Virus record (IMG/VR): IMGVR_UViG_3300028886_001624
Span: 115,816 to 135,815 of that record
Origin: an uncultured virus (IMG/VR IMGVR_UViG_3300028886_001624)
Lineage: Duplodnaviria > Heunggongvirae > Uroviricota > Caudoviricetes
Strand: one strand, 5' to 3'
DNA length: 20,000 bases
The translations under genes were made by a program, and so were the position numbers. This document shows positions 5,219 through 16,293 of this stretch, in pieces. The notes under the pieces were generated by a model. That model saw nothing but the letters and a program-made list of their open reading frames with translations. It was not told where the DNA came from and ran no database searches. The stretch's first letter is position 1, and each line of letters starts with the position of its first letter.

Positions 5219-5292
5219 CGGGGTGTAGCGCAGTTGGTTAGCGTGCTTGTTTTGGGAACAAGTGGTCGTGTGTTCGAGTCACACTACCCCGA
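5219..5292 (+). tRNA. trnP: tRNA-Pro (anticodon UGG), CCA not encoded
   Basis: CGGGGTG/TACCCCG acceptor, GCGC-AGTTGGTTA-GCGT D-arm, CTTGT-TTTGGGA-ACAAG anticodon arm, GTGTG-TTCGAGT-CACAC T-arm. Confidence 0.97.
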
Positions 5293-5330
5293 CATCTGCT
5301 TGAATCTATACTTGTATTTTCTACTACCAA

Positions 5331-7186: not shown

Positions 7187-7870
7187 ATGAAAAAGATTTT
7201 CTTCAAAGAAAATTCTTCTGTCCATAGGACGGAAAATTTAGAGAGATTCTGTGTGGAAATGCGCAGAGTAACGAGAGTAACCAACAACCGCAACAGTGAG
7301 GAAGAATTTAGTAACTTGCTTGCCGAGGCACAGGAAGGTAATACCGCTTCTCGGAACAAGTTAGTAGAAAAGCATCTTCGTCTTGCCTATAGTGTGGCTG
7401 CACATTATAACGGCATGGCAGAATTTGAAGATTTACTTCAAACGGCATCTATCGGCTTAATAAAGGCCATAGAAAACTATCGTAGCACTGATGGCTTATT
7501 TAGTTCCTACGCAGTTATGACTATGCGTAGGGAAATTACGCACGAACTAACCGCAAACGGCCGGAAGTTTGGGCATGAAGTAAAGAGCATTGACGAGCCG
7601 TTAGAAGGTGCAGAAGGCGCAGGAAACGAGCGTTTCAGTGACCTTTGCGCCGGAACATCACATGCAGACGATATTGTCAGCGCAGACGAAAGAACAAGAG
7701 AGATTAAGAAGTATATATCTTTCTTGACAGAGCCGGAGGCAAAAATTATCTTAGGTGAATTTTTGCAGGACGAAACCGATTTTACTATGAGTTTAAAACT
7801 CGGTGTATGTGTTGAAAGAATACAACAGATAAAGCGCAGTGCTCTGAAAAAATTAAGAGAACTGATGTAA
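7187..7870 (+). CDS. RNA polymerase sigma-70 family factor (phage-encoded)
   Basis: Region 2: RNKLVEKHLRLAYSVA...EDLLQTASIGLIKAIENY...FSSYAV; region 3 SIDEPL; region 4 ERIQQIKRSALKKLR. Confidence 0.92.
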   Translation: MKKIFFKENSSVHRTENLERFCVEMRRVTRVTNNRNSEEEFSNLLAEAQEGNTASRNKLVEKHLRLAYSVAAHYNGMAEFEDLLQTASIGLIKAIENYRSTDGLFSSYAVMTMRREITHELTANGRKFGHEVKSIDEPLEGAEGAGNERFSDLCAGTSHADDIVSADERTREIKKYISFLTEPEAKIILGEFLQDETDFTMSLKLGVCVERIQQIKRSALKKLRELM

Positions 7871-11567: not shown

Positions 11568-11972
11568 CTATCGACTTATTAATATTTTGAACACGTGTTC
11601 CATCCAAGGTTGGTCAACCCCTTGTCTTTCTTCGTCATCCACAAACAAACGGTCTAGGAACTTACGTTCCCAATCATTGTGCAAGTTCCACCAAAAGTCC
11701 GGACCCTCCGGAGTCTCTTGCCAATTGAAGGCTCTCATGAAAACATTTGAGCGTATGTAAGTCGTAGAATTTAATGAGTTAAGTTCGGTGAAATTGATGA
11801 ACAATCCTTTGAGTTTGTTAAATCCTTCGTGGCACTTTACGACATATTTCGCCGCGTGTTCCTTAAACGAGTGGTAACACTTGTGGTATTTTAGGAAATA
11901 CGTGAAGAGCATTGTTAATTCCTCCCGGCTGACCGTGAAATATCCGGTATCATCAATTTTTATTTTTGCCAT
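11568..11972 (-). CDS. paralog family A protein (134 aa; true start MAKIKIDD at 11972)
   Basis: YFLKYHKCYHSF...AFNWQETPEGPDFW; start lies just downstream of the promoter at 12005-12035. Confidence 0.85.
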   Translation of the reverse strand: MAKIKIDDTGYFTVSREELTMLFTYFLKYHKCYHSFKEHAAKYVVKCHEGFNKLKGLFINFTELNSLNSTTYIRSNVFMRAFNWQETPEGPDFWWNLHNDWERKFLDRLFVDDEERQGVDQPWMEHVFKILISR

Positions 11973-12000
11973 CTTTTTCTCCTTTATTAAGCATATGGTT

Positions 12001-12035
12001 AATGCAAAGATATATAAAAAATGTGAGAAAACAAA
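12001..12035 (-). promoter_or_regulatory. Bacteroidota promoter for the paralog operon
   Basis: Minus TTTG(12032-12035)-N19-TATCTTTG(12005-12012). Confidence 0.8.
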
Positions 12036-12098
12036 CAATGGTATATTTATATTAAGATTTTTTAAAGGTTTTAGAGATTTTTTATAAGAGAGAAAAAA

Positions 12099-13328
12099 AT
12101 GGGAAAAATGGTTAATGTTTTTATGACACCAAGACAGTTTGGAGTGATTGAGGAAGCAAATTGGAACTTCCACAGAGGGTCGGTTGACAACTTGAGGCCG
12201 TATGTGAGCGACAACAAGTATCACATGGGAGGAAGGGAAACCGGGCATTTCGGCAGCGGGACGTATTTCTCCACGTACAAGAACTCTAGCGGCTTGGACA
12301 AGTATCGCTCTGAGGGCGGTGACCGTAGGTTTGTGTCGGTCGGTGACGGCGTGTACCGCGTTGACCTAGATATTTATAAGAATCTGTACAAGGTTAGGAG
12401 CAAGAGACAAGGTGACGTTCTCTATACCTTGCTTAAAAACGTTAACCGTCTTGGAAACAGAATTGCCTACTTGGGAGAGTTTAGGCGCGGGTTGGCTTCG
12501 TATGACAATGCCGACTTGTACCAAGTTATAAGGGCAAACGCTAAGGGGCTTGGACTCAAGTGTCCCTCATACTATGAACTCACTAGGATGGCGCAGCGGT
12601 TGGGGATGGACCAAAATGACGTTAGGTCGCTGTCAACCGTGTTCATGGAGTTCAACGGCTACAACGGAGTGGACGTGAGCGGTGTGGAGTATTACGACAA
12701 CACGAAGCACGGGTCTGTAATTTATGACATGTCCAAGATTGGCGGTGAGGTCGAGGAGGTTATGCCGAAATCGTTATATACGGGGTATAAGGATTCACCG
12801 TATGACAACTCAGTCGTTAGGGACGGTATCACGGACAAGAGGATTGAGTCGCTGAAAGGTGAAAATGCGTTTTGGGTGAAAGACCTTGACGGAATGCCGG
12901 TAAGCGAGGCCATGAGGCTGCTTAAGAACTATACGGACAGCGGGAACGCATTGGACTCCTATGAGTTCGATTCACTGAATGATGACTTGGCAAGCCGGTA
13001 CCTTAGACTCTTGTTTGTCAAGGACCCGAACTATGACTATTGGGGGGAAACGATTATTGACCGGATTTTGGAAGGACGGTACGGAAAGGGGTACTTGGAA
13101 CGGATTGAAAAACTTGGAGCATACTATTGGGTAAACTACTTGTCGAAGAAGAGTTCCGGACTCATTGCCTTTCTCAAAAGGTTCGGCATGGAATTGGATT
13201 GGAGCCTTGATGCGGAAGAGGAGAATAGGATGAAGAAGGGATATTTGGACAAGTTGACAAGGTATTTGCAGAGGGACTTGACGGAAGACGAAAGGGAGTA
13301 CATTGACAAAAGATACTACAGCATCTGA
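12099..13328 (+). CDS. 409-aa protein with putative ADP-ribosyltransferase-like N-terminal domain
   Basis: FHRG...GHFGSGTYFST...GYNGVD...SVIYD resembles the HG/G.G.YF/GYDG pattern of PARP-like or ART-PolyVal folds; not confirmed. Confidence 0.6.
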   Translation: MGKMVNVFMTPRQFGVIEEANWNFHRGSVDNLRPYVSDNKYHMGGRETGHFGSGTYFSTYKNSSGLDKYRSEGGDRRFVSVGDGVYRVDLDIYKNLYKVRSKRQGDVLYTLLKNVNRLGNRIAYLGEFRRGLASYDNADLYQVIRANAKGLGLKCPSYYELTRMAQRLGMDQNDVRSLSTVFMEFNGYNGVDVSGVEYYDNTKHGSVIYDMSKIGGEVEEVMPKSLYTGYKDSPYDNSVVRDGITDKRIESLKGENAFWVKDLDGMPVSEAMRLLKNYTDSGNALDSYEFDSLNDDLASRYLRLLFVKDPNYDYWGETIIDRILEGRYGKGYLERIEKLGAYYWVNYLSKKSSGLIAFLKRFGMELDWSLDAEEENRMKKGYLDKLTRYLQRDLTEDEREYIDKRYYSI

Positions 13329-13711
13329 ATCCATTCAGTGTAGTTTTCTCCATTGGTTTTGAGTGAAAATCTTTTCTTTAGAGTTTTGTAGTTCTTGTTA
13401 AGAAAATCACGCCATTCCACGTAAATCAAGTACGGGTAGTCTCTTTTCTTGGTTAGGTGAGAAAATAGTTGGTTGGAGTTTTTGTCCATGTTATAGACCA
13501 TTAAGCCTATAACATAGTTTAGATTACAAATCGTTGGATTCTCCATGGCTCTTTCGAGGGTGCTGATAACAATGTGTAGGTTATTTGACGATACTATTTT
13601 ACTGTCTATATTGGAATAGCACGATAGGAACATCGGTCCAAGCAGCCTCCTTTCCTTTAGGAAGTGCAAGAGAATCTTCTTTGCGACATTCTGATTATCT
13701 TTTTGTTCCAT
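13316..13711 (-). CDS. hypothetical protein (131 aa), possibly a distant family A member
   Basis: ILLHFLKERR N-terminus and EWRDFL resemble family A but TxEG is absent; own promoter at 13741-13772. Confidence 0.75.
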   Translation of the reverse strand: MEQKDNQNVAKKILLHFLKERRLLGPMFLSCYSNIDSKIVSSNNLHIVISTLERAMENPTICNLNYVIGLMVYNMDKNSNQLFSHLTKKRDYPYLIYVEWRDFLNKNYKTLKKRFSLKTNGENYTEWIQML

Positions 13712-14266: not shown

Positions 14267-15364
14267 ATGAATAAAACGATTCTTAATTATATTAACAAGT
14301 GTGAGGGATGGAAGAGAAACATAAAGGGACTCCATTGGAATTCAAAGAATCTCTCACAACATAAGTTATGTGATGATATTGCTGATGCAATATCTGAATT
14401 CGAGGACTTGGTTTCCGAGATTGAACAATCTATCAGTGGTAAGTTGAATACAAATGCGTTTTCACCCACAAAGAGCAAGGAGACATCCTTGAAGGCATTT
14501 GTTGAGGGTGTCATTTCCGATAGTCAGAGATTCTTGAAGAAACTCGATAAGATGGGAAAGGAGTATGTGGGTATCAAGAGCGAGTGTGAGACGTTCATAG
14601 GTACAATGCAGAGAAATCTCTATCTTGTTAACTTCACGCTCAAGGAAGACCTCAAGAGAAGGCTTAGGAACGAGTTGAATGAGTCTAAGAAGGGGGGAAT
14701 AAGGGTGTCCGAGGCCGAACTGAAGGGAATCTTGCATGAAAGTGTTGCAAAGGCTTTGCGGAATATCATGGAAATGAACGAACTGTATTCTGATTGGTAT
14801 GACGAGGAGGACTATTCCGGTAACATTGGTGAAGAGGGAATGGTTAGGTCGTATGATATTGGTGGGTATTACGTTGACCAAGCCGAGGAGGATGCCATGG
14901 AGAATGGATACGGTGACGATGTTGCGGGTTATCTTGAATATTGGTTCGGCGAGATTCAGCCGGACTGTCCTTGGTATTGGCAGAAGGTCGGAAGCGGATA
15001 CGGATATAACGGAAAAACGCTTTTCTCAAACGACGGAATCGTATGCAAGGACATATTCGGGCAGATAATGGTTGATGAGTATCCGATTGGTGACGCTAGG
15101 AGGGGACAGAGAGCCGAGAGCAAGGAGGCCATGAAACTGACCGAATCCGAATTGGGGGAAATAATTCAAGATGCCGTGATTAGCCTAGTAAGGGAAAAAA
15201 TAGAAATCGACCCGGAGAACAAGGGAAAGTTTACTAAGACGCAGAAAAAGACCGGTAAGTCAACTGAGGAACTGTGTCACTCCAAAAATCCTCTGACTAG
15301 GAAAAGAGCAAACTTCGCAAAGATGGCCAAGCGAAATTGGAAACCTCTTAATAAGAAAAATTAA
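14267..15364 (+). CDS. mosaic 365-aa protein with N-terminal Dps/ferritin-like helical domain, two (L/V)(T/S)ExEL..I motifs and a basic C-terminal module
   Basis: LHW...HKLCDDIADAISEFEDLVSE ferritin-like pattern; VSEAELKGILHE and LTESELGEIIQD; C-terminal ENKGKFT...RKRANFAKMA. Confidence 0.7.
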   Translation: MNKTILNYINKCEGWKRNIKGLHWNSKNLSQHKLCDDIADAISEFEDLVSEIEQSISGKLNTNAFSPTKSKETSLKAFVEGVISDSQRFLKKLDKMGKEYVGIKSECETFIGTMQRNLYLVNFTLKEDLKRRLRNELNESKKGGIRVSEAELKGILHESVAKALRNIMEMNELYSDWYDEEDYSGNIGEEGMVRSYDIGGYYVDQAEEDAMENGYGDDVAGYLEYWFGEIQPDCPWYWQKVGSGYGYNGKTLFSNDGIVCKDIFGQIMVDEYPIGDARRGQRAESKEAMKLTESELGEIIQDAVISLVREKIEIDPENKGKFTKTQKKTGKSTEELCHSKNPLTRKRANFAKMAKRNWKPLNKKN

Positions 15365-15547
15365 AAACAAATAAGAGTTGAGGTGATTCCTCAACTCTTT
15401 CTTTTTATCGTTTCTATTGTATTTCTTTCTGTTCTTGTGAACTTTTGTGACAGATACGAAGTGTCCTCCGCCGTTCCTTTCGAAAGAATCGGCCCTTGAA
15501 ATGAATCTGATGATGTCAGATTGTTTGTTTGACTTTGGAATTTTCAT
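15260..15547 (-). CDS. ArfA/BrfA-like basic protein, probably expressed from a non-stop mRNA
   Basis: Start overlaps the upstream stop (ATGA); FVSVTKVHKNRKKYNRNDKKK; terminator inside the ORF. Confidence 0.6.
   Translation of the reverse strand: MKIPKSNKQSDIIRFISRADSFERNGGGHFVSVTKVHKNRKKYNRNDKKKELRNHLNSYLFLIFLIKRFPISLGHLCEVCSFPSQRIFGVTQFLS
15364..15406. terminator. bidirectional intrinsic terminator
   Basis: AAGAGTTGAGG-TGATT-CCTCAACTCTT (15373-15399), T-rich tails on both strands. Confidence 0.85.
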
Positions 15548-16293
15548 ACTCTTTCTAGTTTTCCGTCAGTTATCAAGAATGGTGCCCTGCAATCGATGCA
15601 AGCCCATTTATCCGTTATTACCGGCGAGTCGACCAATTGTGTGTGGCCGAATATCTGATAATCATATCCGTCCACAATTGAATCCTCGTTTATAACATAA
15701 TTATCTATTCCGGACTTTTCCAAGTCAAGTTTTTCTCTGATGTCTGACCATAATATCGAGCCGGTGTCATATCCTATGTATGTCCGGTATTTTGAAATGT
15801 CGGACAATGATGTTACACCGTCCCTAGACGTGATTAACCTATTTAGGTTATCGGCATTTAGTTCACCTATTATGGCTTTATTCCTTTCGTACCAAGAACG
15901 CATTACACCGGCGTGGGTGAAGAGATATTTCCTATTGTCTATGGTTTCCTCATGTGCCAACTTGAAGAGATTTCTGTTTGTTGTGTATATATCCCTATAG
16001 GTATATGCATTGCTAGAGGAATATCTAGTTGACCTTGGGAATGAGTCAAATATATAATGAAGGCAATGGTTGCCCAACAATAGGACAACCTTGTCTGCAT
16101 TATCGAGTTTGAACTTTACTATTTCCTTAAAATTATTAAGTTCATCCTTCCTTGATATACCCTCGTCCTCATATCTGTCGACGTAGTCACCTAGGAATAT
16201 AATCTTGCCTACATCGTTTCCGTGTGCCGCAACACCGTCCTTCCAAAACGTCCTTCCGTGGATGTCCGGAATTACCATCAGTCCTCTACCCAT
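15544..16293 (-). CDS. calcineurin-like metallophosphoesterase
   Basis: DIHG, GDYVDR, GNH, HAG, FGHT motifs. Confidence 0.92.
   Translation of the reverse strand: MGRGLMVIPDIHGRTFWKDGVAAHGNDVGKIIFLGDYVDRYEDEGISRKDELNNFKEIVKFKLDNADKVVLLLGNHCLHYIFDSFPRSTRYSSSNAYTYRDIYTTNRNLFKLAHEETIDNRKYLFTHAGVMRSWYERNKAIIGELNADNLNRLITSRDGVTSLSDISKYRTYIGYDTGSILWSDIREKLDLEKSGIDNYVINEDSIVDGYDYQIFGHTQLVDSPVITDKWACIDCRAPFLITDGKLERV

Follow-up and report, generated by a model that had tools for sequence, protein, structure and literature searches.

The final 20 kb of the 135.8-kb IMG/VR virus record IMGVR_UViG_3300028886_001624, which is rated 45% complete, form the stretch of DNA analyzed here (the window). The minus strand of the window carries, at positions 15260..15547, a 95-codon open reading frame (ORF) that encodes a small, strongly basic protein and passes through a predicted transcription terminator before it reaches a stop codon. 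Judged by its conservation, this is a real gene for a conserved basic protein, and the best reading of the family comparison is that the working form of the protein has about 61 residues. Production of this protein from an mRNA that lacks a stop codon, under the control of transfer-messenger RNA (tmRNA), is likely given the terminator pattern across the family, whereas an activity in ribosome rescue, suggested by analogy with ArfA of Escherichia coli and BrfA of Bacillus subtilis, is a tentative proposal that inclines toward doubt. The combined reading, in which a protein of about 61 residues is made from a stop-less, tmRNA-gated mRNA and serves as a release factor (RF)-recruiting analogue of ArfA and BrfA, is tentatively favored here with confidence slightly below even.

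The ORF starts at an ATG at position 15547, which shares the tetranucleotide ATGA with the TGA of the upstream gene for a 249-amino-acid metallophosphoesterase. Its first in-frame stop is the TGA at 15262-15260; none occurs earlier, and the frame is read through an 11-bp hairpin whose loop has 5 nt (15373..15399, codons 50-59) and through the T-tract ATTTGTTTTT that lies 3' of it on the minus strand (15363..15372, codons 59-62). The T-tract is read in frame as Y-L-F-L, and relatives encode YFF, FLF, or LFF at this point. The product expected if the transcript ends in the T-tract corresponds to the conserved coding core, codons 1-61 (15365..15547, minus strand). The 34 codons past the terminator (codons 62-95, which together with the stop occupy 15260..15364 on the minus strand) encode a hydrophobic, unconserved tail that is antisense to the final 105 nt of a convergent plus-strand gene; the tails of relatives are unalignable, and this stretch is probably not part of the functional product. 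A sequence-only reading of the window had described the ORF, an in-frame hairpin with no stop before it, and a hydrophobic tail extending about 105 nt into the convergent gene, and all of these features were confirmed.

The convergent gene ends at 15364, and the hairpin lies 8 nt past its stop. On the minus strand, the hairpin reads AAGAGTTGAGG-AATCA-CCTCAACTCTT (15399-15373), with 5 of the 11 pairs being G-C. A second T-tract, TCTTTTTATC (15400..15409, plus strand), would terminate the convergent gene, and because T-tracts flank the hairpin on both strands, it reads as a two-way intrinsic terminator. The fold energies of the two strands are -22.9 and -22.8 kcal/mol (z = -3.9 and -5.6), values that were equaled by 0 of 200 shuffles. 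The hairpin is more than a chance structure: relatives have it too, and compensatory base changes preserve the pairing. Across 30 distinct versions from the phage group, 99.1% of cells were paired, and both sides were altered in 6 of the 11 stem pairs (42 cells); the covariation score was reached by 0 of 500 shuffles, and slid registers paired at only 29-59%.

The protein belongs to a family that the standard libraries do not recognize, as searches of Pfam, NCBIfam, and PHROG with the ORF and with residues 1-61 gave no match over threshold, and cellular members gave nothing above chance against the same libraries. GenBank phages likewise gave no DNA match and no tblastn match. An exhaustive phmmer search with residues 1-61 returned 47 cluster representatives at E<=1e-3, and the matches covered the core part only in all of these except P0008, a repetitive protein of 674 amino acids that was rejected as a spurious match. 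The remaining representatives are 46-116 amino acids long and can be aligned over about 60 residues only, beyond which they are unrelated and variable in length; the family consensus is MKxSKxTKSNxxxKIxxMISRxEQxERNGGGxFVAxNRxxKNKKKYNRKxxKKELRxxLxS. The core is under strong purifying selection, with a median ratio of nonsynonymous to synonymous substitution rates (dN/dS) of 0.066 (70 pairs, 44-codon core). A first viral scan with the single protein and a first genome scan with one alignment found no loci, and the loci described below were found with other family alignments.

A scan of these loci with a hidden Markov model (HMM) of the family identified 210 that contained a family ORF, representing 177 distinct DNA versions. 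The terminator lies inside the frame in 101 of these versions, 66 have an ordinary stop and no such terminator, and in 10 the stop is located before or inside the terminator. The in-frame design was present in 27 of 27 metagenome loci and, as hairpin plus T-tract, in 18 of 20 viral loci including the window; in the viral loci, the hairpin begins 10-23 nt past an invariant Tyr codon and the stop follows 17-281 nt past the stem. The two viral exceptions (L018:2860-3084 and L019:2893-3084) have a stop within the 3' arm of a hairpin that lacks a T-tract; these distant relatives end in ...KYNRADGKKVLRNYF, and a sigma-70-like TTGACA...TATAAT sequence comes after. At least 54 hairpin classes can be distinguished among the 101 in-frame versions, and they place quite different residues at this point of the protein (for example, KKELRNxLNSYFF, KEGKKIDFDTLFF, KAxDKxLPFF, and RDSKVDLESLYFF); given this variety, the target of selection appears to be the RNA and not the peptide. 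Stops interrupt the two remaining frames of the hairpin-plus-T segments in 27 of 54 and 42 of 54 classes; an open frame belongs to the in-frame definition, and the fair comparison is the one among terminator-bearing versions, namely, 101 open versus 10 closed. The stem ends a median of 16 codons past the invariant Tyr (range, 14-20), and stop-bearing relatives end a median of 14 codons past it, so that a product ending in the terminator would have the size of a conventional product. From the stem end to the stop, the tails have a median length of 9 codons and range from 2 to 91. It had been predicted from the window that homologues would keep only the first part of the protein and an in-frame terminator, and this signature was found: about 60 residues and the terminator are retained, and the tails are unrelated.

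These comparisons bear on a rival explanation, in which the small basic protein is an ordinary one, the end of its gene simply happens to coincide with the two-way terminator, read-through supplies enough product, the tail is tolerated, and the missing stop has no regulatory meaning. Such an explanation would fit the normal stop found in 76 of the 177 versions and the service that the hairpin also gives to the convergent gene, whose stop lies just before it, but it is hard to reconcile with a frame that stays open through at least 54 hairpin classes when the other frames are so often stopped, with tails that are unconserved and vary from 2 to 91 codons, with the strong purifying selection on the core, and with a terminator-ended product equal in length to the stop-bearing relatives. 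It is considered quite improbable.

The family is not confined to viruses. A second genome scan yielded 63 loci in Bacteroidales isolates and metagenome-assembled genomes (MAGs), one of which (L082, a large Caldilinea protein) was false and was left out of the counts. The carriers include several Dysgonomonas species, Paludibacter, whole-chromosome Microbacter and Paludibacteraceae MAGs, Alistipes, Muribaculaceae, Mangrovibacterium, and rumen Prevotellaceae, and the chromosomal neighbors are housekeeping genes (proB, rplU, and genes for thioredoxin, peroxiredoxin, D-Ala-D-Ala carboxypeptidase, Tex, and D-Tyr-tRNA deacylase). When the genomes of 401 sampled Bacteroidales species were searched with an HMM, 35 of them had exactly one copy, and in one genus the gene was present in 8 of 8 genomes. 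The terminator lies inside the frame in 23 of the 35 positive genomes, 11 have an ordinary stop, usually after an acidic end, and 1 is ambiguous; the contig of one of the 23 (L198) ends 7 nt past the stem with no stop seen. Among cellular proteins, those most closely related to the phage protein come from rumen MAGs and end at normal stops. The phage version is best described as one branch of a chromosomal Bacteroidales family. The gene is thus not specific to phages, since Bacteroidales chromosomes carry the family as well. One locus (L203; G322:C1:854754-855551) combines a phage-type N terminus (MKKSKRTKSDDPVKILRMISRDEELERRDGKF) with an in-frame terminator in a 3.29-Mb chromosome; it may belong to a prophage or may be the host's own version of the phage-like branch.

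The carrier of the window is a rumen jumbo phage. An identical small protein is present on a 366-kb contig, and the relatives were recovered from rumen metagenomes and bovine runs. The whole record contains 9 tRNA genes and no tmRNA gene, and its genes have A-rich leaders with no Shine-Dalgarno sequences at their starts, a combination typical of Bacteroidota.

In the favored reading, transcription of the minus operon would end at the in-frame intrinsic terminator, yielding an mRNA with no stop codon on which ribosomes would stall once they reached the 3' end. If the gene behaves like arfA and brfA, tmRNA-SmpB with spare capacity would tag the peptide and lead to its degradation, and untagged peptide would build up when trans-translation is saturated, as may happen in phage takeover or after RNA cleavage by host defenses. 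The Lys/Arg-rich rear half would most likely bind ribosomes with an empty mRNA channel, and the peptide would recruit a release factor and free the stalled ribosomes, making it a functional analogue of ArfA and BrfA and not a detectable homologue. In a wider and more doubtful form of this reading, taken up below, the phage copy would keep ribosomes turning over while host RNA is being cut, whether during takeover or by anti-phage ribonucleases, and the family could also be the back-up that allows some Bacteroidales to do without tmRNA. In the available part of a 2025 preprint (10.1101/2025.10.10.681549), tmRNA-SmpB is reported to be dispensable, for unexplained reasons, in Parabacteroides merdae, in which no arfA or arfB homologue was found, and it is for this reason that a further rescue factor would be needed in Bacteroidales. 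In the present analysis, no P. merdae protein was among the matches listed in the protein search.

The gene organization most similar to that of the window gene is found in brfA. According to the available sections of the BrfA study (PMC6881298), the coding region of brfA, 71 codons long, contains a typical rho-independent terminator, and tmRNA tags the product of about 62 amino acids, which accumulates when SmpB is absent. The same sections describe BrfA on the ribosome as a helix (residues 4-17), a short strand (35-38), a second helix (40-47), and a basic tail (48-55), with the basic C terminus sitting in the mRNA channel. The suggestion that the window gene follows a brfA-type design agrees with these data as far as they go, as BrfA (YqkK; RF2 dependent) and the family are both small and basic, with an in-frame rho-independent terminator and products of about 62 and 61 residues, respectively. 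An AlphaFold2 model built with the family alignment consists of a helix (residues 9-24), an extended stretch (25-44), and a second helix (45-60), with a predicted local distance difference test (pLDDT) score of 79.8 and a predicted template modeling (pTM) score of 0.39. In a loose comparison of this model with what the available text gives for BrfA, the two proteins share an arrangement of N-terminal helix, extended middle, and basic rear part. BrfA differs from the family in its distribution (Bacillus versus Bacteroidales and phages) and in that about 43% of family members have a normal stop. Foldseek found zero matches to the predicted model in the PDB, and a wide VIA-align search gave a top Z of 2.9 with common two-helix arrangements only; ribosome-bound Lso2 and CCDC124 appeared in its list at a Z of 2.5-2.6, which is not meaningful. 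A HicA-like toxin, considered from the GGGH motif, was dropped in view of the absence of a Pfam match and of a HicA-like fold in the model.

Several observations weigh against the rescue reading. Normal stops occur in 76 of the 177 versions, including all Dysgonomonas isolates, and tmRNA gating is consequently not universal in the family. Termination at the hairpin is a prediction from sequence. Four runs contained small shares, as contigs only; the contigs of two metatranscriptome runs were sparse, one RNA run spans 14925-15124 and 15177-15337, and none covers the core, so that these contigs are mute on 3' ends. Pfam model PF03889 (ArfA), applied with limits of E<=1 or E<=10, matched neither the ORF or its core nor any of 48 family members, and hhalign comparisons of the family with ArfA, either as the E. 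coli protein or as 14 ArfA sequences of low diversity (all >=80% identical), gave probabilities of 0.14-0.46% and E values of 0.13-0.42, which are not significant. Profile searches of PDB sequences, among which ArfA chains are present, produced only chance rows at E<=10, and no rescue-factor chain indicating similarity to BrfA was returned at that level from a set that probably also contains a BrfA chain. The GGQ of NGGGQF was dropped as a catalytic motif because its residues vary among family members, the window having GGH and others DGK, QGK, or GGR. Finally, the adjacency of phosphatase and kinase genes in the rumen clade (55 and 3 loci, respectively), described below, may reflect another function.

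The likeness to ArfA had originally been argued from a shared basic stretch, and the gene organizations are indeed comparable. In ArfA (YhdL, PF03889), as in the window gene, an unconserved hydrophobic tail is encoded past the truncation point, and the gene is convergent with and overlaps its neighbor (mscL in the case of arfA). The arfA mRNA lacks a stop, and the in-frame terminator predicts the same for the mRNA of the window gene. Both proteins also carry a basic K-x-K-x-x-Y-x-R-K stretch. The E. coli arfA mRNA is cut by RNase III within a hairpin, whereas the family has an intrinsic terminator, and it differs further in its N-terminal helix and its inserted ERNGGGxFV segment. In E. coli K-12 (L021:1932-2150), arfA is convergent with mscL with a 4-nt overlap, and a small RNA derived from arfA is annotated over its 3' end. 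The hhalign comparison aligned only 11-12 columns, HKsKKxYdRK with KKGKGSYxRKGK, the latter of which we take to be the channel-binding part of ArfA. Likeness as homology is therefore not detectable, given the lack of PF03889 matches and the negligible hhalign probabilities over so few columns, and as judged from these alignments the shared basic motif is a resemblance and not evidence of homology. PF03889 also found nothing in the phage record at E<=1, and the same model recovers E. coli arfA at 4.8e-25.

A divergent but true ArfA homologue, possibly connected through the phage mini-protein family DUF7230 rather than being an independent invention, would be compatible with the profile comparison having twice selected the same 11-12 ArfA columns. 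DUF7230 (PF23876) comprises uncharacterized mini-proteins, and its model gave weak matches over the basic motif KDKSKYxRKDKKK in 4 of 48 family members (E, 0.008-0.03). The top match (E = 0.0084; 16.7 bits) lies under the curated cutoff of 27 bits, and the model has 42 positions compared with the family core of about 60 amino acids. The Atlas lists a DUF7230 cluster, and 14 of 65 members weakly match phrog_20887, phrog_2701, or phrog_18092 (9, 4, and 1 members, respectively). Every one of these scores is under threshold, however; Lys-rich composition can yield such matches, and PF23876 itself had no match either in the phage record or, within 5 positive genomes, at the loci of the family. Shared descent with ArfA is regarded as improbable.

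In the window, the small gene is the last of a minus-strand operon in the order UvrD-type helicase, thioredoxin, deoxynucleoside monophosphate (dNMP)-kinase-like protein, two metallophosphoesterases, and small gene. The metallophosphoesterase directly upstream (15544..16293, minus strand) is of the PPP type (Pfam Metallophos, E = 1.3e-8; phrog_246, NinI-like Ser/Thr phosphatase), and the convergent gene that shares the terminator (14267..15364, plus strand) encodes 365 amino acids with weak N-terminal matches to DUF5856 and phrog_858 (Dps-like). A homologue of the metallophosphoesterase is found in the fetched flanks of 55 family loci, which take in nearly all of the rumen phage and metagenome loci with a family ORF, and its position is just 5' of the small gene in the phage loci from the rumen, the metagenome loci, and 9 rumen MAG loci; in L108, it is downstream instead. 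The neighbor in L050 (L050:2188-2949) is 35% identical to the window phosphoesterase (E = 8e-35). In three rumen MAG loci (L051 [103-2940], L058, and L068), one or two Ser/Thr kinase genes directly upstream replace the phosphatase; the contig of L057 also carries L068, which is a second copy with a shortened N terminus. Neither linkage was seen in the Dysgonomonas, Paludibacter, Alistipes, and Mangrovibacterium loci. This distribution suggests that the phosphoesterase and the small gene constitute a two-gene block that has moved between rumen hosts and phages. At L049:2501-2560, only the final 20 or so residues (YNRNDKKKELRNNLNSYFL) and the terminator remain, right after the phosphoesterase gene, and the stretch resembles what would be left of a decayed small gene whose terminator was retained.

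The linkage leaves room for a function in phospho-signaling or RNA-end chemistry. More broadly, the protein may be stop-less and tmRNA gated without being an RF-dependent rescue factor, acting instead as a regulator, partner, or substrate of the phosphatase or the Ser/Thr kinases, in ribosome silencing, in nucleic acid binding, or as a phage sensor of translation stress. The phosphoesterase homologues flanking the 55 loci in phages and rumen MAGs, the kinases in L051, L058, and L068, and the lack of detectable homology to known rescue factors would all accord with such a role, but the phosphatase and kinase linkage is confined to the rumen clade, the basic rear half suits binding in the mRNA channel, and we know of only rescue factors being gated by a stop-less mRNA. 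This explanation is considered unlikely, though it deserves more weight than a read-through gene or a hidden ArfA homologue.

Back-up rescue factors that depend on RFs are, to our knowledge, restricted to a few narrow lineages (ArfA, ArfT, and BrfA), and we know of none in Bacteroidales. A wider form of the rescue reading, about which we are rather more doubtful than hopeful, is that the family represents a fourth, independently evolved class of RF-dependent rescue factor that is native to Bacteroidales and gated by tmRNA through the in-frame terminator, and that rumen jumbo phages captured it together with the phosphoesterase. The phage-borne copy, if this is true, would be the first virus-encoded factor of the ArfA/BrfA kind known to us. 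Bacteroidales are a dominant order in gut and rumen. A literature search found no published description of the family and no phage-encoded or Bacteroidota rescue factor of the ArfA/BrfA kind. A survey of rescue pathways covers more than 15,000 genomes (PMC11633108, available in part), and a second article lists Pth2 and IF3 among ideas for phage ribosome rescue, with the name "ArfA" absent from the portion of its text that was available (PMC7824862). The accessible part of the BrfA study describes ArfA and BrfA as unrelated but convergent and expects further, unidentified rescue systems (PMC6881298); a conserved, uncatalogued family with the diagnostic stop-less design offers a concrete candidate for knockouts and assays.

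A thioredoxin gene occurs in the phage operon (17812-18093, minus strand) and, in Paludibacter-type chromosomes, a short distance upstream of the small gene (L093:1530-1835, L086:1589-1894, and L074:2449-2910); this proximity may be coincidence. Elsewhere in the window, the plus strand carries a tRNA-Pro(UGG) gene (5219-5293) and a gene for a sigma-70-family factor (7187-7870; Sigma70_r2, phrog_351). A plus-strand ORF of 409 amino acids with no family match (12099-13328) is antisense to several minus-strand ORFs (11568-13711), and one of the two strands is probably noncoding in that region.

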